NCBI GenBank assembly: GCA_951406725.2
Contig: OX597831.1
Coordinates: 59,892,001-59,956,000 of the forward strand
Origin: Octopus vulgaris
Lineage: Eukaryota
Direction: 5' to 3'
Length of the DNA: 64,000 nt
Under the pieces are notes generated by a model, which saw only the letters and a program-made list of their open reading frames with translations, searched no databases and was not told the origin of the DNA. Below are positions 21,417 to 55,482 of this stretch, in pieces. A program made the translations under genes and the position numbers. The first letter of the stretch is position 1. Each line of letters begins with the position of its first letter.

Positions 21417-21947
21417 ATTATCTAGGAACATGTATTAGGTGGTTACCGACTCAAGTAACATAACAGGTTGACTATCGCTATTACCAAAGGCACTCTCTGT
21501 ATTGGTAAATCTATCATCATTTATTATCTAGGAACATGTATTAGGTGGTTACCGACTCAAGTAACATAACAGGTTGACTATCGCTATTACCAAAGGCACT
21601 CTCTGTATTGGTAAATCTATCATCATTTATTATCTAGGAACATGTATTAGGTGGTTACCGACTCAAGTAACATAGGTTGACTATCGCTATTACCAAAGGC
21701 ACTCTCTGTATTGGTAAATCTATCATCATTTATTATCTAGGAACATGTATTAGGTGGTTACCGACTCAAGTAACATAACAGGTTGACTATCGCTATTACC
21801 AAAGGCACTCTCTGTATTGGTAAATCTATCATCATTTATTATCTAGGAACATGTATTAGATGGTTACCGACTCAAGTAACATAACAGGTTGACTATCGCT
21901 ATTACCAAAGGCAATCTCTGTATTGGTAAATCTATCATCATTTATTA
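21417..21947. repeat. Tandem array of five near-identical 106-bp units
   Basis: TCTAG(G)AACATG recurs at 21421, 21527, 21633, 21736 and 21842 (one unit has a 3-bp deletion). Confidence 0.95.
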
Positions 21948-24563: not shown

Positions 24564-25940
24564 GTGTATGTATGCATGCATGTAGTTGTACAAACACATA
24601 TAGAAACGCACCCACATACGGACACACACACACATGCACACACGCATACACACACACTCACACGCATATAAACACTTAGGGACATAGGGATGGTTTAAAT
24701 CTATATATGTGTGCAGTTGTGTGTGTATTTGAATGAATAACAATACAAAGATAACTTACAGAAGCATGGCTGTTTGTGGTGGAAAGAGCTGAGAATTCCC
24801 AGCAGTGTAACTTTATCAAATATGGAAACTACCCGAGGAAATATATAATACGGAGGCGATTCATCATTCATCTTGAAATACTTTTGCTTTCTTCATAATT
24901 TAGTTTTGCATATTTAACATTAATATATTTCTGCAGATTTTGTTGACAGGTATAAGATGCTTCTATAAATATTGACAGTTTCGTTAAACCATTAAATCCT
25001 ACCTCCTAATCACTTCAGCTGTTCGGTCCCGGCTGTGAATAAAAAAACGATATATTTTTTTCTTAATCATTTTTAGGTCTATTGAAAGTATATTTGAAGC
25101 GACTTCTTACTCATCTATCTCTAGATTTCTGAGTTAGCGGATTTACAAACATTGTAAATAGTTCAAAATTTTATAATGCCAGCATTTTAAATCAAAGGAA
25201 GCGATATTATTTTTGACGGATTCAGTCTACATGAACGGAGGTTTGTAAAACTTAAATGTGTTATGCATATGCATATACCTCGAGGAAAATATAATGAAGG
25301 ATATCAAATCTGTATTATAATCGTCTCAATAACTTGATATTACCAGAGATAAAAAAATTTTAGCAAAAAATTCATGCTCGAGATCTCACCAAGTTACTGA
25401 GTTGAAGATGCATGTAGCATCCTTAAGGTATGTAACATGGGGGAGTTTTCTATCTGTAGATATTACAAACGTTTACTTCAAACGAATTTGTTCCCCATAG
25501 TCTTGAACAACATGCCATAGTTTAATAGCGATATCTGTCACAATACCCAGTACATTCCTCGTGAGAGTAAAGTCTCTAAGTAGAGGCTTCTCACACACAC
25601 GCGTATTTTGTACACTCTATATGAAGTAGCTTAGAGCAACTAATGCGAAATGGATGAGATAGATAAGTAAGTACCAGCAATCCTCAACCACACTGTCAAA
25701 TAAAGCGCTCCATCCCAAATCACCTCAGAATGTATAAGTTTTGTTCCCATTAGATAAATTCAGTACGACCCCTTGTTCATATAGAAAACAAAATACATTG
25801 TTTTATTACTTACCTTCTTCTTCTCATACGAAATATATATCTACATCGGCGTTTAGTATATATTCAGAATAAATGCATACATTGAAATTACTTACTGTTA
25901 CATATGAGTTCAATGTGATAAATTGTATTGTGTAGGTAGG

Positions 25941-26173
25941 GGCGGCGAGCTGGAAGAAATGTTAGCACGCCAGCCGAAATGCTTAGCGGTATTTCGGCTG
26001 CCGTTACGTTCTGAGTTCAAATTCCGCCGAGGTCAACTTTGCCTTTCATCCTTTCGGGGTCGATAAATAAAGTACCAGTTTCGCACTGGAGTCGATGTAA
26101 TCGACTTAATCCCTTTGTCTGTCCGTGTTTGCCCCCTCTATGTTTAGCCCCCTGTGGGTAATAAATAAATATA
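25941..26173 (+). mobile_element. tRNA-derived SINE with a ~15-bp TSD
   Basis: TATTGTGTAG(G/A)TAGG at 25926-25940 and 26174-26188. Starts GGCGGCGAGCTGG. B-box-like GAGTTCAAATTCC. Confidence 0.9.
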
Positions 26174-26296
26174 TATTGTGTAGATAGGTAGCATTGGAAA
26201 TAATGTCAAAGTAACTGTGTGAACGTCATCCTCACTATGATTAAGTATCTCCAAAATATATAATCTACCATGGTTGAGTGAAAATAGCAGAGAAAG

Positions 26297-27232
26297 AGTC
26301 CTTCCTTTGAGATATGGTGTCATTCGAAAGATATTTGGCTGCTATTTCTAGGTAATCGTGTGTACCCAAAGCTGCAATATCGGAAGTGTCCTTCCTTTGA
26401 GACGTGGTGTGATTCGAAAGAGATTTGACTGCTATTTCTAGGTAATCTTTTGTTATTACAGCTGCAATATCGAAAGTGTCCTTCCTTTAAGACATGGTGT
26501 GATACGAAATAGATTTGACTGCTATTTCTAGGTAATCATGTGTACCGAAACCTGCAATATCGAAAGTGTCCTTCCTTTAAGACATGGTGTGATTCGAATA
26601 GATTTGACTGCTATTTCTAGGTAATCGTGTGTACCCAAAGCTGCAATATCGAAAGTGTCCTTCCTTTAAGACATGGTGTGATTCGAAAGAGATTTGACTG
26701 TTTTTTCTAGGTAATCGTGTGTACCTAAAGCTGCAATATCGAAAGTGTCCTTCCTGTAAGTCATGGTGTGATTCGAAAGAGATTTGACTGCTATTTTCTA
26801 AGTAATCGTGTGTACCCAAAGCTGCAATATCGAAAGTGTCCTTCCTTTAAGACATGGTGTGATTCGAAAGAGATGTGACTGCTATTTCTAGGTAATCGTG
26901 GGTACCGAAAACTGCAATATCGAAAGTGTCCTTCCTTTAAGACATGGTGTGATTCGAAAGAGATTTGACTGCTATTTCTATATAATCGTGTGTACCCAAA
27001 GCTGTGGCACCATGTCATAAGGGACGGGCACTTTCGATATTGCAGCTTTGGGTACACACGATTACCTAGAAATAGCAGCCAAATCTCTTTCGAATAACAC
27101 CATTCCTTATAGGAAGGACACTTTCGATATTGCAGGTTTCGGTACACACGATTACTTAACAAAAGCAGTCAAATCTCTTTCGAATCACACCATGTATTAA
27201 AGGAAGGAAACTTTGGATATTGCAGTTAAGGG
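26297..27232. repeat. 90-bp tandem satellite: ~8 units forward (26297-27004), then ~2.5 units inverted (27008-27232)
   Basis: CTTCCTTT(A/G)AGAC recurs at 26301, 26391, 26481, 26571, ~26660, ~26750, ~26841 and 26931. After 27008 the reverse complement of the unit is read. Confidence 0.95.
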
Positions 27233-27452
27233 TAAGATTTTCGGTGAAAATTTTCGAAAAATTTTGGGGTAAAATTTTGGGGTGAGGCATCGTGACTGTA
27301 GAAGTAAACCAGAATTCACACTATATATACACAGAAAGCAGTAGCAGCCACCTAAAAAATTATTTTTAGCCATAACATCTATTTTTAGCTCGGGGAAAAT
27401 ATTCGAAAATTTTCGAAAAATTTTCAGGTAAAACTTTCGGTGAAAATTTTCG

Positions 27453-27560
27453 AAAACCCATATAACGAATATGCTCCATATGCTGAAGTCTATAAACGTC
27501 GATATCGTCATAGTTGTTAAATATGAAACAGAATCTGGTGTATCGTGGATGGTGAGGCAT
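27453..27560 (-). pseudogene. CRESS-DNA/circovirus-like Rep N-terminal fragment, copy A
   Basis: MPHHPRYTRFCFIFNNYDDIDVYRLQHMEHIRYMGF; degenerate RCR motif I. Confidence 0.55.
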
Positions 27561-28342
27561 CTTGACTGTAGTAGTAAACAAGAATGCACCCTATATATAC
27601 ACAGAAAGCAGCAGCAGCCACATAAACATCTATTTTTAGCAATAACATAAATCTATTTTTGGTTAAAATTTTCGGTGAAACTTTTCGAAGAACCATATAA
27701 CGAATATCCTCCTATAAATGTCGACATAGTTTTCGACGAAAATTTTTATGGAAAATTTTCGAAAAATTTTTTGGTAAAATTTTCGAGAAATTTTTGGGTA
27801 AAATTTTTGGTGAAAATTTTATGAAAAATTTTTGGGTAAAACTTTCGGGTAAAATTTTCGAAAAATTTTCGTAGAAAAGTTTCGGTGAAAATTTTCGAAA
27901 TATCATATTACGAATATGCTCCATATGCTGAAGTCTATAAACGTCGACATCGTGGATGGTGAGGCATCTTGACAGTAGTAGTAAACCAGAATTCACTCTA
28001 TATATACACAGAAAGCAGCCGCAGCAGCCACATACAAATCTATTTTTAACAATAGCTTAAATCTATTTCGGGGTAAAATTTTCGGTGAACATTTTCGAAA
28101 AATTTTTGGGGAAAATTTTCGGTGAAAATTTTCTAAAAATTTTTGGTTAAAATTTTCGGTGAAAATTTTCGAAAAACCATATAATGAATATGCTCCATAT
28201 GCTGAAGTCTATAAACGTCGACAACGTTTTCCGTGAAAATTTTCTGAAAATTTTTAGGGAAAATTTTCGAAAAAGTTTTGGGGGTAATTTTTGGTGAAAA
28301 TTTTCGATAAAGTTTTGGGGAAAAGTTTCGGTGAAAATTTCG

Positions 28343-28450
28343 AAATAACATATTACGAATATGCTCCATATGCTGAAGTCTATAAACGTCGACATCCTCA
28401 TAGTTGTTAAGTGTAAAGCAGAATCTGGTGTATCGTGGATGGTGAGGCAT
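28343..28450 (-). pseudogene. CRESS-DNA/circovirus-like Rep N-terminal fragment, copy B
   Basis: MPHHPRYTRFCFTLNNYEDVDVYRLQHMEHIRNMLF. FTLNN is the canonical RCR motif I. TATATATA lies ~32-39 nt upstream of the ATG. Confidence 0.65.
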
Positions 28451-28743
28451 CTTGATAGTAGTAGTAAACCAGAATTCACTCTATATATACACAGAAAGGA
28501 GCCACATAAAAATCTATTTTTAGCAATAATATAAATCTATGTTTGGTTAAAATTTTCGGTGAAAATTTTCGAAACACCATATAATGAATATACTCCATAT
28601 GCTAAAGTCTATAAACGTCGACATCGTTTTCCGTGAAAATTTTCTGAAAATTTTTAGGGAAAATTTTCGAAAAAATTTTTGGGAAAATTTTTGGTGAAAA
28701 TTTTCGATAAAGTTTTGGGGAAAAGTTTCGGTGAAAATTTTCG

Positions 28744-28851
28744 AAATAACATATTACGAATATGCTCCATATGCTGAAGTCTATAAACGTCGACATTCTC
28801 ATAGTTGTTAAGTGTAAAGCAGAATCTGGTGTATCGTGGATGGTGAGGCAT
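28744..28851 (-). pseudogene. CRESS-DNA/circovirus-like Rep N-terminal fragment, copy C
   Basis: MPHHPRYTRFCFTLNNYENVDVYRLQHMEHIRNMLF. Confidence 0.65.
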
Positions 28852-29539
28852 CTTGACAGTAGTAATGAACCAGAATTCACTCTATATATACACAGAAAGG
28901 AGCCACATAAAAATGTATTTTTAGCAATAACATAAATTTGGTTAAAATTTTCGTTGAACATTTTCGAAAAATATTTCGGGAAAATTTTCAGTGAAAATTT
29001 TCGAAAAATTTTTGTGAAAATTTTCGGCAAAAATTTTCCGTGAAAATTTTGGGGGAAAATTTTCGGAGCAAATTTTCGAAAAATTTTTGGTTAAAATTTT
29101 CGGTGAACATTTTCGAAAAATATTTGAGAAAAATTTTCGGAAATTCTCGGAAAAATTTTAAAAAATTTTGGTTATAATTTTCGGTGAAAATTTTCAAAAA
29201 ACCATATAACGAATATGCTCCATATGCTGAAGTCTATAAACGTCGACATCGTTTCCGTGAAAATTTTCTGAAAATTTTCGAAAAATTTTTGTGTATAATT
29301 TTCGCTGAAAATTTTCGAAAAATTTACGGTGAAAATTTTCGGCAAAAATTTTGAAAAACTTTTTGGGTAAAATTTTCGGTGAAACTTTTCGAAATATCTT
29401 TGGTTAAAATTTTCAGTGAAAATTTTCGAAAAATTTCTAGGTACAATTTTCGGTGAAAATTTACCAAAAATTTTCATGGAAAACATTCGGCAAAAATTTT
29501 CAAAAAATTTTTGGGTAAAATTTTCGGTGAAAAATTTCG

Positions 29540-29647
29540 AAAAACCATATAACGAATGTGCTCCATATGCTGAAGTCTATAAACGTCGACATCATCATAG
29601 TTGTTAAGTGTAAAGCAGAATCTGGTGTATCGTGGATGGTGAGACAA
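29540..29647 (-). pseudogene. CRESS-DNA/circovirus-like Rep N-terminal fragment, copy D (ATG mutated)
   Basis: LSHHPRYTRFCFTLNNYDDVDVYRLQHMEHIRYMVF. Confidence 0.62.
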
Positions 29648-29996
29648 TTTGACTGTAGTAGTAAACAAAAATTCACTCTCTACATACAGAGAAACGAGTC
29701 GCAGCAGCCACATAAAAATCTATTTTTAGCACTAACATAAATCTATTTTTGAGTAAAATTTTCGGTGAACATTTTCGAAAAATATTTGGGGAAAATTTTC
29801 TGTGATAATTTTCGAAAAGTTTCCGTTAAAAATTTTCGGCAAAAATTTTCAAAAACTTTTTGTGTAAAATTTTCTGTGAAAATTTTCGAAAAATTTTTAG
29901 GTAAAAATTTTCGAAAATTTTCGAAAAATTTTTATGAAAAAGTTTCGGCAAAATTTTCAAAAAATTTTTGGATAAAATTTACGGTGAAAATTTTCG

Positions 29997-30104
29997 AAAA
30001 ACCATATAACGAATATGCTCCATATGCTGAAGTCTATAAACGTCGACAACATCATAGTTGTTAAGTGTAAAGCAGAATATGGCGTATCGTGGATGTTGAG
30101 GCAT
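29997..30104 (-). pseudogene. CRESS-DNA/circovirus-like Rep N-terminal fragment, copy E
   Basis: MPQHPRYAIFCFTLNNYDVVDVYRLQHMEHIRYMVF. Confidence 0.62.
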
Positions 30105-30944
30105 CTTGACTGTAGTAATAAACCAGAATTCACTCTCTACATACACAGAAACCATCCGCAGCAGCCACATAAATATCTATTTTTAGCAATCTATTTTGGG
30201 GTAAAATTTTCGGTGAAAATTTTCGAAAAATTTTTGGTTAAAATTTCCGGTGAAAATTTTCAGAAAAACAATATAACGAATATGTTCCATATGCTGAAGT
30301 CTATAAACGTCGACATCACTTTAGGTGAAAATTTTCCGAAAATTTTTGGTGAAACTTTTCGAAAACTTTCGTGTGACATTATAAGCAGCCTGTAACATGA
30401 ATACAACTCGAAATTAGAAAAACATAAGAATGAAACAAATTAGTACACATTACACTTAGAGCATAATACTTACGAAGATATTGCTAGACAATGTATGGCC
30501 AGTTTTCGGCTATTGAGCCATCTACATATAACTTTTATAAATTACTTTCAGGCATATATTTCATCTTTCGTTCTTCTAACAGGACTTCAGAAAACCTGCA
30601 CACTATGACATTTAAACGAAGTTTATGCACTCTATATTATGTGCTTAATAATTTTCTGTCTCACATTAAAAAAATATTTATCCTCTTTAGTTTAAATTTT
30701 ATTGTATTATTTTGTCACGTTTCTTCAAGTAGAATCGGTTACGAATCGAATAGGTTTCGCAGCGCTTCTTCCCGCTGTGTCCGTTCTGAGTTCCAGTTCA
30801 ACCAGACTCGAAATTCTTTATTGTTGGCTATGTGCCAAAATTTGAATCTGTTATTTGCCATATTTCCTTACTTTACTGTAGCCATTATTTCCGCCGTGAA
30901 TATTATCCTGAATCCATCTCAGTATTTTACATTGTATATCATCC

Positions 30945-32310
30945 GTGAAATAGTTTCATATTGTGAAATTAATTCTCCATTTGAATAACTCCTGAATGAA
31001 TTTCCTGTGTAACATGCGATTAGACCGAATTGGATCATCTCTTACTGTCTCCTTTAACATGTTTCTTGTCATCACAAGGACAACCATCCTCTCCCCACTA
31101 GCTTCTATATTGTATTTGCCTTACCTTTGATTTCTAATTGCAACTTACATCACGAGGACACCCCGGCCTAGTAATAGTGTTAGAAACTTCAGCTTTCCTA
31201 CTAGCTTTTTTAATTCAGCCTTCTCTTTCCTAGATTATTGGAATGGGAAAAAGCTTTACAGTAAAGAATATTCGTGGAATAGTTTTTCTTTTATATAGCT
31301 GTGCGATGCTTGCCATAGATCTCATGGAATATAATTGGTGATTATTAACATTCACATAAGTGTAAATCCAATACAGAATAGGCCCTGCAATTTTACATGA
31401 TTATTTATCATGGTTCAGAAAAGATTTCATCGTTATAAACCCATCTCTATTATCTGCAATATACTGAATATGTAATTTATTAATAAATAAATCTCGGACC
31501 TCATACGGAGTTATTAATCGCTTTCTGCATTACTAAAACTATACTTATTTACAATAAATACTATTTAATTACTTTCCTCTCGCGAAAATTAAATAAATTT
31601 TCCGTAGTAATATTTTACGATTTTCTATTTTCGATATTGTGAATATGTTTTATGGGTATATATGTATAAACAAAACCTTATACAAGTTATGAAAAATAGA
31701 ATACAGTATATGATATAGCATAGCTAGAAAAATTCTGTCTTACTTTCGAAATTAATTGACTAGTATTTATCGCAAATGAGTATTCAATTCCTGAAGCCGC
31801 GTGGCTTAGTCGTTAGGGACATTCGGCTCATGATCGTAAGGTCGTGAGTTCAATTCTCGGCGGCGCGTTGTGTCCTTGAGCAAGACACTTTATTTCACGT
31901 TGCTACAGTCCACTCAGCTGGCAAAAATGAGTAGTACCTGTATTCCAAAGGGCCGGCCTTGTCACACACTGTGTTACGCTGAATCTCTCCGGGAACTACG
32001 TTGAGGGTACACGTGTTTGTGGAGTGCTCAGCCACTTGCACGTTAATTTCATGAGCAGGCTGTTCCTTTGAACGTATCAGCTGGGATCCTGGTCGTGACA
32101 ACCGACCGAGTACTTCTTATTCAATTACTAATGCAGGAGTAGATTATGACCCATATCCAGCTTCGCTGTTTATTTCAACGTCCCTCAGAGTATTTTACAT
32201 GTATATCCTCGGTGAAATAGTTTCATATTGTGAAATTAATTCTCCATTTGAATAACTCCTGAGTGAATTTCCTGTGTAACATGGGATTAAACCTAACTGG
32301 ATCATCTCTT
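30945..32310 (+). repeat. ~100-bp dispersed direct repeat (30945-31041 and 32212-32308)
   Basis: GTGAAATAGTTTCATATTGTGAAATTAATTCTCCATTTGAATAACTCCTGA..TTTCCTGTGTAACATG..TGGATCATCT occurs twice. Confidence 0.85.
31793..32117 (+). mobile_element. tRNA-derived SINE of a third family, with a conserved central domain and a ~12-bp TSD
   Basis: A box TGGCTTAGTCG, B box GAGTTCAATTC, and TTGTGTCCTTGAGCAAGACACTT (typical of SINEs with a conserved central domain). TATTCAATT(C/A)CT flanks both sides (31781 and 32118). Confidence 0.85.
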
Positions 32311-50949: not shown

Positions 50950-53900
50950 TCAGAATTTGGGCACTATGGCCCACTCAAGTAGAGAGTTGTTATTGTTTAC
51001 AGAGACATACCCGGGTGTAGGGGGTTTATCCGGGATTTCTTGAAGGAATCTGTCCAAAGACTTCTTGAACCCTATAGGGTCAGTTTCTGTTTTAATGTGT
51101 TTTGGTGTAATGTTAAAGAGAGCGGGGCCAATTGAGGTGAAATAATTGTGCCGTATTGTTGTTATGAGATGAGAGTGCGATTTTTGTTTTGGGCGGATGG
51201 CACGGGGTCCAAGCCCTGGATGTACCTTAAAGGTGATGCCAACATCATTTGGGCATTGCTGATGGAATATTTTCCACATCATGCAGATGATGTAGCGCTC
51301 ACGACGACGTTGGAGAGAATAGAGTTTTAGCTTTTCTAGTCGACCCCAATAGTCGAGGCCTGTCATGCCATCTATCTTTTTTGTGATTGCCCTTTGAGGT
51401 GCTTCAACTTTTATGATACCTTGTATTGTGTGGGGAGACCACAGTGGACAACAGTATTCAAGGTGGGGTCGGGCAAAAGTGGAGAAGAGAAGGATAATGG
51501 TGTGGATATCTCTCGACTGGAAAGTTCTGAGAATCCAGGAACACATTCTGCGGGCCATGTCAACTTTGGTGTTTATATGAGTGGCCCAGCTTACGTTGTT
51601 GTCCACAATTACTCCCAAGTCTCTGATGTTGTTGGACGCCGCGAGGGTTTCACCTGAAGGAAGGGAGTATGGGAGTTTCAGGGCATCCTGAAATTTATCC
51701 TCGTTCAGCAGCATATTGTTTTTTTCTGCCCATTGGATAACAGCCAGTAGATCTGACTGAAGGCATGTCCGGTCACTCGCCTCATTTATGACCTTCTGTA
51801 GCTTGGAGTCATCTGCAAAGATTTTTATCTTGCTGTGCTTGATGATGTCATTAATGTCATTAATGTAAATGAAAAGAAGTGGGCCCAGCACAGTGCCTTG
51901 CGGAACGCCACTACTGACTTTGGCTGGGCTTGATTTTACCCCTTCAACTACAACATGTTGAGATCTGTCTGTCAGGAAACACGTAATCCATTTCAGTAAC
52001 TTTCCAGAGACACCAATGTTGGATAGTTTTTTCAATAGGATCTTGTGATCGACCCTGTCGAAGGCCTTACTGAAATCAAGGTAGATGACATCGGTGTTGG
52101 AGCCCTCTCCCAAAGCTCTCAAAATGTCCTCAAAGTGATGCAGGAGCTGCGTTAGGCAGTCCCTTCCATTACGGAACCCATGTTGGTTGGAGATCAGCCG
52201 TCTGTTGCTTTCCAGAAATTGGGTTATTCGAGATCTCACCACCCTCTCAAATACCTTGATGATATGAGAGGTGAGTGAGATCGGACGGTAATTCACTGCA
52301 AGGGACTTGTTTCCCTTTTTGAAAACTGGGACAACAGACTGGGACAGAAGGTTTTTTGGAATATAGCCAGCATCCAGTGAGTTTCTCCACAGATTAGCAA
52401 GGGGAGATGCAAGTTGGTGTCGACACACCTTCAGGACACAAGCAGGGAACATATCGGGGCCTACTGCTGAATTGTGTTTTATTTCGTTTATCGCCGCTAA
52501 GACATCAGGGGCACTAAACGTTATGTCCGATATAGTGTGCTGGGGGTTGACATCACTGATACAGCCCAGATCGGCCATATCAGGATTGCTGAAAACAGAG
52601 CAGTATTGTTTCTGCAGTATCTCGGCCATGGATTTGGCATTATCTTGGAGAGTGCCAGTTTCGTCAATTAGAAGGCCTACAGTGGAGACAGTGACCCTGC
52701 GTTTCCTCGCAAATGAAAAGAACACTTTGGGGTTGAGTTTGATTTTTTCAATGGCCCACTTCTCCTCAGCTGATCTTTGGTTATTGATGAGGGTCTTCAT
52801 GCATTGTTGGAGGTTATATTTTCTGGATTCAAGCAGTGCGATAGCCGTCGAATGTGTGTGTTGCTGTTGGCAGTACTTTAGTTTGTTAATTTTTTTGTTT
52901 GTTCTTTTTATTTTTCTGATAATGGTTTTTCTGTTTTGGGGGATTCTGCACTTTTTGTTCACAGGTCTTGGTGGGGAGTGTTTTGCACATATGTCTGTGA
53001 CGGTGTCTACAAAGATCTGCCAAGATGTTTTATGGTTGGTGGAGATGTGTGTATGTGTAAAGGACCAGTCAACATTTGATAGCTCGTTCCTGATTGCATC
53101 CCAGTTGGCTTTATGGAGATCCATGTTGTCAAATGGGTGGGCTGGAGGAAGGTCACTAGGATTAGCTTTCGGCTGGTGGAATTTCATGTTACAGAGAACC
53201 ATGTCATGGTCTGAAAGAAGGGTTTTTTCCACTGTAACGTTATGTATAGTGTTAGTGTGGTTACTAAACACTAGGTCCAAAATGTTCTGATGTCTTGTTG
53301 GTGCAAGGACAAGTTGGGACAAGAAAAACTCATTCGTAAAGTCGAAAAGTGACTCTGCTGCTTCTTTGTCAGCGGTTGAGGCGGGAGTGCTTGGTTTCAA
53401 ACAGTTTGTAGTCCAGTCAACACAGGGTAGATTGAAGTCTCCCATCATGAGTATGTTGCTAGAATGGCACTGTTGAATAAAGCACTTAATGCTGTTGAGG
53501 CATTCTTTAAAGCACAGTATGGGTGTTTGGGGCGGCCTATAGAGCCCAATTACTGTCAGGTCATTGGCTTTGTTGTGCACGGTGACTGATTCACAGTAGC
53601 CGTTGGAGAATATACTATTTCCATCTGCCGTAAATGAATCATGCAGGAAAATGGCAGTTCCACCCTTCCTCCTGCCGATACGATCCGCGCGGATGGTTGT
53701 GAAATTCTTCACTCTCACTTCGGCTTCCAAGTGGGAGTTGTCAAGGTGGGTCTCAGTGAGAATGAAGAAAGGGATGTGGTGTGAATGGTTACCAACCCAG
53801 TCTTCAATGAATTGGACCTTCCATTTTTGTGCATTGATGGAAGGGCTGACACCTTGTGCATTGAGTAGGAATGTGGAGGTTAGTGTAGTGGCTGGTTTTG

Positions 53901-53997
53901 ACTGTTGCAGGGGGCTTGGATTTTTGTGTGTGTTAGTGGCAGCAATGTGGGGAATTGGTGCACTGGGGTAATAGCATAGGATGGTGTTGAGTGATGG
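50950..53997 (-). CDS. LINE ORF2: apurinic-like endonuclease + reverse transcriptase
   Basis: The frame is open from 53997, upstream of the track's TTG at 53730, and includes APE motifs LNAQG, LTETHL, GGTAIF, YRPP, GDFNLP, LDLVF and SDH. RT motifs: NYRPISLTS, QHGFR, YLDFSKAFD, GVPQGTVLGP, FADD. Small in-frame deletions appear likely (GPLLF-IYIND; KFQDALK). Confidence 0.93.
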   Translation of the reverse strand, partial: PSLNTILCYYPSAPIPHIAATNTHKNPSPLQQSKPATTLTSTFLLNAQGVSPSINAQKWKVQFIEDWVGNHSHHIPFFILTETHLDNSHLEAEVRVKNFTTIRADRIGRRKGGTAIFLHDSFTADGNSIFSNGYCESVTVHNKANDLTVIGLYRPPQTPILCFKECLNSIKCFIQQCHSSNILMMGDFNLPCVDWTTNCLKPSTPASTADKEAAESLFDFTNEFFLSQLVLAPTRHQNILDLVFSNHTNTIHNVTVEKTLLSDHDMVLCNMKFHQPKANPSDLPPAHPFDNMDLHKANWDAIRNELSNVDWSFTHTHISTNHKTSWQIFVDTVTDICAKHSPPRPVNKKCRIPQNRKTIIRKIKRTNKKINKLKYCQQQHTHSTAIALLESRKYNLQQCMKTLINNQRSAEEKWAIEKIKLNPKVFFSFARKRRVTVSTVGLLIDETGTLQDNAKSMAEILQKQYCSVFSNPDMADLGCISDVNPQHTISDITFSAPDVLAAINEIKHNSAVGPDMFPACVLKVCRHQLASPLANLWRNSLDAGYIPKNLLSQSVVPVFKKGNKSLAVNYRPISLTSHIIKVFERVVRSRITQFLESNRRLISNQHGFRNGRDCLTQLLHHFEDILRALGEGSNTDVIYLDFSKAFDRVDHKILLKKLSNIGVSGKLLKWITCFLTDRSQHVVVEGVKSSPAKVSSGVPQGTVLGPLLFIYINDINDIIKHSKIKIFADDSKLQKVINEASDRTCLQSDLLAVIQWAEKNNMLLNEDKFQDALKLPYSLPSGETLAASNNIRDLGVIVDNNVSWATHINTKVDMARRMCSWILRTFQSRDIHTIILLFSTFARPHLEYCCPLWSPHTIQGIIKVEAPQRAITKKIDGMTGLDYWGRLEKLKLYSLQRRRERYIICMMWKIFHQQCPNDVGITFKVHPGLGPRAIRPKQKSHSHLITTIRHNYFTSIGPALFNITPKHIKTETDPIGFKKSLDRFLQEIPDKPPTPGYVSVNNNNSLLEWAIVPKF

Positions 53998-54039
53998 CTA
54001 GAATGTTTTTGTGTATCTCTTTTGCCATGTTCAACATGG

Positions 54040-55161
54040 CTAAAAAGAATTTTCCTGCTTAGGGAGCAGTTTTTGGCTGGAGGTGTGGTTGCACTGTTGG
54101 ATAGGGTTGTAGTTTCCACTTTTGTTGTTGTTGTTTTTGTGTCTTCCTGAAAAGACTGGACCAGCATTACTGCAGCATGGTGTGTTTCTATTTTTATTGT
54201 TATTCAGGTTTGTGTGTTGGCTTGAGGCCCCGTTTCTGTTTGTGCGTCGGGTCCCAGGAAGATGAGTGAAGGGACAGTAACTCAGTAGACATGTTCTCTC
54301 ACGTTGGGAATACCGGCAGATTTTGGGACTCCGAGTTGTGTGTGTTTTGAATTTCGATTTACTATTTGGTGGTGTTGATGTTATTGTGGGATGCGTGCTT
54401 TGGCATTGGCCGGTAGTGCGTCTAGTGCCGGGTAGATGCGTGAAGATGCAGTCACTATTTGTGCAGAGTCTCTGGCGCAGTGAATAGCGGCATATTTGGG
54501 GATTTCTTGTTTGTGCCGTGGGGGGCGCATTCTGCTTCCTATGTTTCTTTAAGTTTTTGTTACTGCAGTAGTATTGAGGTGGTGATGTGGGGGAAGAGGG
54601 CAGTGGTTGCTTATTTGGTTTTCTGTTGGTATTTTTGGTGATAAAAGACGATGGTGGCAGCGGTGGTGATGATGATGATGATAATTGTGGTGGTTGCTGT
54701 GAGAGCGGTGAAAAGATACTGGCATTTAGTGAATCATCTAGTAAGCTAGAGTTGAGGAGTGGCTGTTGTTGTTCTTGTTGCTGTGGCTGTTGTTGTTGTT
54801 GTTGTGCTTGACCGATGTTAGGGTCAGCCATTGTGCTGGGAACCAGGAGTGGCTCATTCTGTTGTTGTTGTTGTTGTGGCTGCTGATTTTCTAGCTGTTG
54901 TTGTTCTTGAACTGTGAAAATATGTAGAAGCTTTTCATAATGGCCTCTTATCAGTTTGAAAGATACTTCGATATGTTTCAACTTGCTACGAATCTGTTTG
55001 ACGGATCGTGTGTTGACCACTTGTGATGTTTTTTCGGCAATCTCATTCAAACACAAGACATTTAGATTTTCTGTTTTGGAAAGAGAGAACCATGTGTTTA
55101 TTAAAACATCAATTTCGTTATCAGACCAATTTCGTCTGTTGCAGGCCTGCAAGTTAGTCAT
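54040..55161 (-). CDS. LINE ORF1: N-terminal Myb/SANT-like domain, Q/P/S-rich linker, two C-x8-C-x4-C-x3-H zinc fingers
   Basis: RNWSDNEIDVLINTW..RSVKQIRSKLKHI; CRYSLRQRLCTNSDCIFTH-LPGTRRT and CRYSQRERTCLLSYCPFTH-LPGTRRT. Confidence 0.85.
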   Translation of the reverse strand: MTNLQACNRRNWSDNEIDVLINTWFSLSKTENLNVLCLNEIAEKTSQVVNTRSVKQIRSKLKHIEVSFKLIRGHYEKLLHIFTVQEQQQLENQQPQQQQQQNEPLLVPSTMADPNIGQAQQQQQQPQQQEQQQPLLNSSLLDDSLNASIFSPLSQQPPQLSSSSSPPLPPSSFITKNTNRKPNKQPLPSSPTSPPQYYCSNKNLKKHRKQNAPPTAQTRNPQICRYSLRQRLCTNSDCIFTHLPGTRRTTGQCQSTHPTITSTPPNSKSKFKTHTTRSPKICRYSQRERTCLLSYCPFTHLPGTRRTNRNGASSQHTNLNNNKNRNTPCCSNAGPVFSGRHKNNNNKSGNYNPIQQCNHTSSQKLLPKQENSF

Positions 55162-55482
55162 GTTTGTTTTTCTTTTGTTTGTTTTCCTTTTGATTTTTGA
55201 AAATATATATATTCTTTCTTGGGAGTTAAAGAAGTGTATATATATATAAATGTTCTCTCTTAAGGGTGTGAGTTTTTGATTATTTGGTTGTTTGAGGATA
55301 TTAAAAGAAAAACAGGTGTATATAACAATTTGTAGTTAAATGAAAACGTACTTACGGGTTTGTAGGCAAACACGTGGTTACAAATATATATATATTTAAG
55401 GTCAGTTAGTTTTGAAGCTGTGTAGCTTGCTACTAACTTGGGAGAGAAACAAATAGACGTCCGTCCACTTCAACAGTTAATC

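Follow-up and report, generated by a model that had tools for sequence, protein, structure and literature searches.

A truncated CRESS-DNA virus rep fragment in a dispersed patchwork satellite of the octopus genome

A fragment of a CRESS-DNA virus rep gene was probably captured once into a host patchwork satellite of Octopus vulgaris, which spread by break repair or circular-DNA reinsertion and not through Rep-driven rolling circles. The fragment is preserved in a ~200-bp cassette that descends from a viral Rep, ends at one 3' breakpoint against an AT-rich repeat, occurs at no fewer than 38 loci and decays neutrally. One of its arrays occupies positions 27233..30372 (minus strand) of the window, the whole 64-kb stretch of DNA analysed here, where cassette pieces alternate with AT-rich 12/13/24/37-bp repeats.

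Array layout and Rep ancestry of the cassette

Cassette sequence accounts for 1549 of the 3140 bases of the array and is divided among 12 minus-strand pieces: five with the entire 35-codon stretch, one internally deleted, one 5'-only and five short 3' pieces of 29-58 bp. The first-pass annotation had reported about 12 copies, which agrees with the number of pieces, although only five of these carry the entire coding stretch. The start codons of the five lie where they had been placed. The full copies with an ATG at 30104, 28851, 28450 and 27560 extend over 29993..30188, 28740..28937, 28339..28540 and 27449..27658, respectively, and the copy with a TTG start at 29647, which serves as the natural reference copy of the cassette, over 29536..29748. 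The 28851 and 28450 copies, described previously as 401 bp apart, are indeed paired within a local ~400-bp tandem duplication (28142..28971) whose halves are 95% identical. In the internally deleted piece (27894..28068, ATG 27967) the deletion covers motif I and the frame is lost, and the 5'-only piece (27281..27378) comprises the upstream segment, the TATA box and the first codons. The short 3' pieces are represented by a ~58-bp sub-unit at 30263..30318, by further pieces at 29193-29250, 28568-28625 and 28168-28223 and by a 29-bp remnant at 27684-27712, all on the minus strand. The longest AT-rich 37-bp spacer block (28936..29544) is a host-type repeat that is present elsewhere without the cassette. 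Beside the array (26292..27225) lies a tandem repeat whose 90-bp units switch orientation at 27004/27008; it stands outside the cassette family, with a match of at most 51 bp in the other loci retrieved.

The TATA box TATATATA is present in five of the seven pieces having the upstream part, including the 28851 copy, and is altered in the 29647 and 30104 copies. Its first base is located ~40 nt 5' of the ATG. From its position, the upstream segment may represent a viral promoter. No long host-gene frame is seen near the array, and an Rfam scan of 25500-32000 gives no match. The longest open frames of the 64-kb window resemble, in our reading, retrotransposon proteins or simple repeats.

The Rep ancestry of the cassette, proposed in the first-pass annotation as the 5' end of a CRESS-DNA rep, is established by sequence comparison. 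The cassette displays motif I near the N-terminus of a Viral_Rep-type domain. The suggested check with the Pfam Viral_Rep model (PF02407) matches two of the five window peptides, those of the TTG copy (E 0.0054) and of the 30104 copy (E 0.032), although both matches are weak and below the curated cut-off. The 36-residue peptide originally quoted is a blend of copies, its exact spelling occurring in none of the five full copies. Across the genome the same model finds one strong site, C14:64.34 Mb, where a frame of 104 aa comprising motifs I-III (hereafter the C14 Rep) scores 81.6 bits and matches solved Rep structures at the sequence level with an E of 2e-14 (PDB 2hw0, 7kii, 7lar). The window peptide of the TTG copy is identical to the start of the C14 Rep at 23 of 35 residues (66%), and cassette and C14 rep share ~70% identity in DNA. 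Over 107 copies, the mean number of mismatches to C14 is 11.4 at first, 4.9 at second and 16.6 at third codon positions (of 35 each), and their accumulation on third positions points to coding selection before capture. In tblastn the C14 Rep scores 54.3 bits against the array, whereas 100 shuffles never exceed 21.6 bits and the window outside the array never exceeds 20.8; thus, the Rep likeness is not due to chance. A quick tree of 60 rows, in which the window rows occupy one third of the columns, groups four window copies, the C14 Rep and three unnamed Logan proteins in one clade (SH-aLRT 100), separate from the other 52 Reps. The best three of 172 protein matches are all members of this clade. 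In the alignment, motif II is missing from two of the three Logan proteins and motifs I and II from the third; these proteins may, therefore, be fossils too. A chance likeness, or a cassette derived from a host exon or an ordinary transposon, could draw on the mere 35 codons involved and on the Pfam blank for three of the five window copies, the other two falling under the curated cut-off. Set against the margin over shuffles, the codon-position signature, the DNA-level match to C14 rep and the single Rep clade holding the top matches, this reading is already refuted on sequence grounds and its residual probability is negligible.

In contrast to complete Reps, the cassette stops early. The motif II-III part of the C14 Rep has no match in the arrays at E<1 and reaches at best E 0.17 in four more loci. 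Fourteen tblastn matches extending to residues 65-89 in the arrays were rejected as spurious extensions, the motif II-III part alone being unmatched. Among ten matches to the superfamily 3 helicase domain none falls in a known array locus.

A dispersed and neutrally decaying family

The genome-wide search that had been proposed for other arrays and for longer rep copies recovers both. The cassette occupies no fewer than 38 loci, spread across 14 contigs of the 2.8-Gb genome, a lower bound obtained with places within 50 kb merged. There are 241 cassette matches in 34 of 35 mapped regions, and four more regions contribute 27. The arrays range from ~300 bp to >14 kb and are patchworks in which cassette and AT-rich units are combined with a 32-bp and, in some cases, a 22-bp repeat; at least 8 of the 34 regions have both orientations inside one block. 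Cassette matches start at scattered points along the cassette. In contrast, the 3' end is nearly fixed, with 180 of the 241 matches terminating in the last bin and a further 18 immediately upstream of that bin, and all cassette loci stop before motif II. This shared 3' breakpoint, together with the absence of motifs II-III beyond it, indicates one truncation event. Similarly, 24 of 37 short pieces in the loci retrieved have a common start base, suggesting that the sub-units were made once and copied between loci. The junction of cassette and AT-rich repeat is bridged by contigs in all four runs examined (of 24 listed), which carry four organism labels, possibly of close species or synonyms. 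Contigs of run X11, considered RNA only by guess, contain pieces of the cassette and of the AT-rich repeat.

The arrays form an irregular patchwork and not a regular head-to-tail higher-order unit. Copy identity is 90.5% within loci versus 88.9% between loci, values that, together with the irregular units, led to the rejection of a classical homogenised satellite. Differences among copies are spread evenly over codon positions (234/222/218), with a nonsynonymous/synonymous ratio of 0.97, and stops interrupt 28 of 107 ungapped copies while indels affect 21 of 128. The cassette decays neutrally and is expected to have no protein function.

The flanks of the 41 array blocks with both ends covered (four blocks reaching the edge of the retrieved sequence were left out) are unrelated, and the ends are ragged at arbitrary points. 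Neither shared termini nor evident target-site duplications are found in these 41 blocks, where fuzzy ends could hide 1-4 bp. As an exception, a ~380-bp palindromic element adjoins the cassette at three loci and was copied with it as a block; two arrays terminate in (TTA)n. Empty counterparts were obtained locally for one of 12 loci and for one more by genome search, giving two satellite sites in total, with one of the two comparisons resting on an old diverged repeat. A 297-bp piece replaces ~21-24 bp of a SINE-like repeat. A 310-bp piece is positioned at the join of a young retroelement, 97-99% identical to its siblings, with a different retroelement, which indicates that spreading continued recently. 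At the separate 412-bp C14 rep insert, 39 bp of a Merlin/IS1595-type transposase have been replaced that sibling copies retain. We discarded the alternative that the C14 Rep occupies an intron within a fused Merlin-Rep element, since 12 sibling Merlin junctions are uninterrupted and the 39 bases replaced are coding. Sites with an empty counterpart thus show loss and not duplication, and these losses, together with the ragged ends, are consistent with pieces being captured at breaks and array fragments being reinserted. We infer this mechanism with a published parallel in Tribolium satellites (PMC11610590).

CRESS-DNA-like fossils and the origin of the arrays

Thirteen further CRESS-like fossils are present in the genome: those on C14 and C15, seven loci with a helicase part and four with a capsid-like frame. 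The C14 fossil is single-copy, endonuclease-only and ended by an insertion boundary. The C15 fossil (C15:38.11 Mb), exposed by a search with the relative P0001, displays a ~2.15-kb unit between two copies of the intergenic region and is greater than unit length. Both intergenic copies contain a stem-loop and the nonanucleotide TAGTATTAC, with one change in one stem. In this fossil, rep is broken by an internal deletion and a frameshift over the motif II region, a frame of 354 codons that includes a helicase-type part is open, and an arginine-rich frame lies in convergent orientation. The nearest Atlas clusters of the latter are CRESS capsid-like (score 0.90), with Circo_capsid on 29-31% of their members, which makes a putative capsid-like gene a lead. 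Pfam gives no useful match on the helicase and capsid-like frames of C15, and its RNA_helicase model (PF00910) gives none across the genome, a blank that reflects the model because helicase-type fossils do exist. A fossil on C11 combines helicase-type and capsid-like parts; over 257 residues, its identity to an O. bimaculoides protein is 88%. In IMG/VR no close virus is found, the best matches reaching 33-50% for the endonuclease and 44-51% for the helicase, and two distant Reps (36-39%) are all that metagenome contigs yield.

Neither the AT-rich nor the 32-bp repeat has a match in the viral fossils examined. Arrays selected by one of these motifs lack the cassette in 19 of 20 cases, a proportion inflated by the choice of the 13 arrays with the 32-bp motif away from known cassette loci. 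These 13 include 12 cassette-free arrays, and the AT-rich-motif loci, all of which were taken, are cassette-free in seven of seven cases. Since such arrays exist without the cassette, the rep piece seems to have been carried along by the host repeat as a passenger and not to have founded it. In the reverse order, cassette-free arrays could be derivatives that lost a cassette once present. None of the 13 fossils is the direct donor of the cassette, the closest being only ~70% identical in DNA, and no donor with a longer rep or viral flanks was found beside the helicase- or capsid-like fossils. As the donor was not found, we can only infer the order of events.

The first-pass annotation had proposed that rolling circles converted a virus into the satellite. 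This conversion is not supported, given the cassette-free AT-rich and 32-bp arrays and the search for an origin hairpin, which returned none in 140,828 array bases; two nonanucleotide-like words occur in them, neither within a stem. The same search detects the C15 origin used as a positive control, with a 9-bp stem and a z of -4.7. In contrast, the upstream part of the cassette does not fold (z -0.9). In eight comparisons of the upstream segment with the C14 and C15 upstream regions, the best result is equalled by 19 of 500 shuffles, a chance-level match.

A sequence of events accommodating these observations would begin with a CRESS-DNA virus lineage that infected the octopus germ line repeatedly, its pieces being captured at chromosome breaks. 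One rep piece would have become part of a patchwork built of 37-bp AT-rich and 32-bp repeats, within which slippage, unequal exchange and short-homology deletions would produce full, half and inverted units. Break repair or circular-DNA reinsertion would then bring arbitrarily bounded array fragments to new sites.

Amplification and spread of the arrays by a viral Rep, either through defective or hybrid virus-host minicircles inserted as concatemers or as a non-autonomous Rep-mobilised element, is unlikely. Geminivirus hybrid minicircles that join virus and AT-rich host DNA are known (PMC6293997), the greater-than-unit-length viral insert with its two origin copies is what a rolling-circle product should look like, and repeated infection would have supplied Rep. 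However, all minicircles described in that paper retain the origin stem-loop, which the octopus family does not, as the hairpin search and the unfolded upstream part reveal. Moreover, the irregular units are not head-to-tail copies of one circle, terminal repeats are absent and arrays of the same type spread without the rep piece. Transport as host-transposon cargo, in the form of central repeats of a non-autonomous Helentron or of a TATA-driven RNA copied by a LINE, is highly improbable. Oyster satellite-like arrays are dispersed inside Helentrons (PMC7492417), and both the palindromic element block-copied with the cassette at three loci and the (TTA)n ends of two arrays would suit such a carrier, but the 41 blocks share neither a left nor a right flank, orientation is mixed within blocks in at least 8 of 34 regions, and the scattered cassette starts are associated with no common tail or target duplication.

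Independently of how it spread, the family might be retained as a source of antiviral small RNAs against the source virus lineage; the first-pass annotation had likewise proposed a promoter-bearing source of small RNA or piRNA. The many copies, the TATA-like box seen in the majority of full copies, arrays in inverted orientation that could form double-stranded RNA, the signs of recurrent infection and a neutral protein evolution compatible with an RNA role are all in line with such a purpose. Drift is nevertheless alike at all positions, indels and truncations are many, the sole stretch shared with the closest viral fossil is ~30% divergent and hitch-hiking accounts for the copy number without selection, which leaves retention for small RNAs quite improbable. 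The broader idea of an undescribed octopus ssDNA-virus lineage that keeps entering the germ line, with satellite-borne rep starts, present at dozens of loci in sense and inverted copies, as a small-RNA memory or antiviral archive, is rather speculative and also improbable. Single capture by a host satellite and its spread through breaks or circular DNA is the reading preferred here, and the octopus Rep-derived satellite is probably without function.

Relation to known systems and significance

With CRESS-DNA Reps the cassette has in common motif I as well as the helix and strand behind it; it differs from them in lacking motifs II and III, the helicase and the origin. Among relatives in the same genome there occur motifs II and III, part of a helicase, an origin with a stem-loop and a capsid-like gene in convergent orientation. 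The closest known system is that of the geminivirus-related DNA (GRD) elements of Nicotiana: in GRD2/3/5/53 and in yam EGV1 a truncated, degenerate rep of a circular ssDNA virus is fixed as multiple direct repeats (PMC5014472), and a truncated, repeated and neutral rep is common to both systems. However, GRD units retain an origin-like intergenic piece and cluster on one or two chromosomes, whereas the octopus cassette has no origin, comprises 35 codons only, is interleaved with host-type repeats and occupies its 38 or more loci in an animal host.

As in the octopus family, the Tribolium Cast arrays are short, are distributed over many chromosomes and have irregular ends, and circular-DNA reinsertion has been proposed for them (PMC11610590). 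The oyster Cg_HINE arrays are likewise short and located on many chromosomes (PMC7492417). An assignment of the octopus arrays to Helentron cargo was rejected because the conserved left and right flanks of such elements, with subterminal inverted repeat and hairpin, and a fixed array orientation are both missing from them. The octopus family differs from Cast and Cg_HINE in that one of its modules is of viral coding origin. Replitrons resemble the family as multi-copy eukaryotic elements with a CRESS-related HUH domain and no helicase (PMC10288648). Replitron identity was likewise rejected, as short terminal direct repeats and an intact Rep transposase are lacking in the octopus and a helicase-bearing relative with a capsid-like gene exists. 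The C14 fossil is endonuclease-only like the Replitrons, but it is single-copy and has a virus-type YxxK motif.

Among the open-access literature listings searched, no Rep-derived satellite or CRESS fossil is reported in cephalopods, and a term search of the main text of the O. bimaculoides gene-transfer data paper (PMC6011040) finds viruses unmentioned. The Rep-derived octopus satellite is, apparently, undescribed.

The family illustrates how DNA of a non-retroviral virus, by hitch-hiking in a dispersed satellite, can attain hundreds of copies in an animal genome although the captured piece has no viral or transposase function. In addition, an unclassified CRESS-DNA lineage is tied to a cephalopod host. 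Most CRESS viruses that metagenomes have revealed lack a known host; the octopus fossils thus provide both a host link and datable fossils, of use to paleovirology and to the study of satellite dynamics.

Tandem repeats and long frames of the window

The array of rep-derived cassette pieces adjoins a 90-bp tandem repeat with an inversion inside it (window positions 26292–27225), and a 106-bp tandem repeat occupies 21417–21947 with five copies that are 98% alike. A retrotransposon-like frame lies at 107–1723, and two long frames of 431 and 1015 codons on the minus strand (50950–55335) resemble the coding part of a LINE, with a putative endonuclease and a putative reverse transcriptase.

Cassette neighbours and the cassette-free satellite

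Loci L046, L048 and L056 have in common a palindromic miniature element of ~380 bp, placed within a TA run and directly upstream of a single cassette, and a 22-bp repeat, kilobases long, follows or lies close to element and cassette. Among the arrays L214–L233, picked by AT-rich or 32-bp motif, AT-rich 37-bp and 32-bp units form a widespread patchwork satellite without the viral piece.

Viral fossils elsewhere in the octopus genome

An endogenous CRESS-like genome of greater-than-unit length is located at L180:4804–7122 (C15:38,111,804–38,114,122), where two origin stem-loops are spaced ~2.15 kb apart, rep is broken, the helicase-type frame is open and the capsid-like frame is convergent. Ten further fragments display 33–71% identity to its helicase-type part and capsid-like frame, six being helicase-like (C3:10.37, C30:3.38, C1:220.79, C1:161.98, C17:60.80 and C15:76.33 Mb) and four capsid-like (C12:6.09, C31:6.46, C31:3.48 and C6:7.17 Mb). 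A 412-bp rep 5' fragment at L011:1383–1794 (C14:64.34 Mb) carries an open endonuclease frame of 104 codons and sits inside a young Merlin-type transposase, 39 bp of which it replaces. The Merlin/IS1595-type family is large in this genome (515 candidates, 150 of them scored), several copies having open frames of >300 codons. Helicase and capsid parts are found together at L206:3206–4654 (C11:25.61 Mb), in a fossil whose open frame of 299 codons displays 88% identity to an O. bimaculoides protein; this is possibly an old insertion common to both octopuses, its frame held open by selection.
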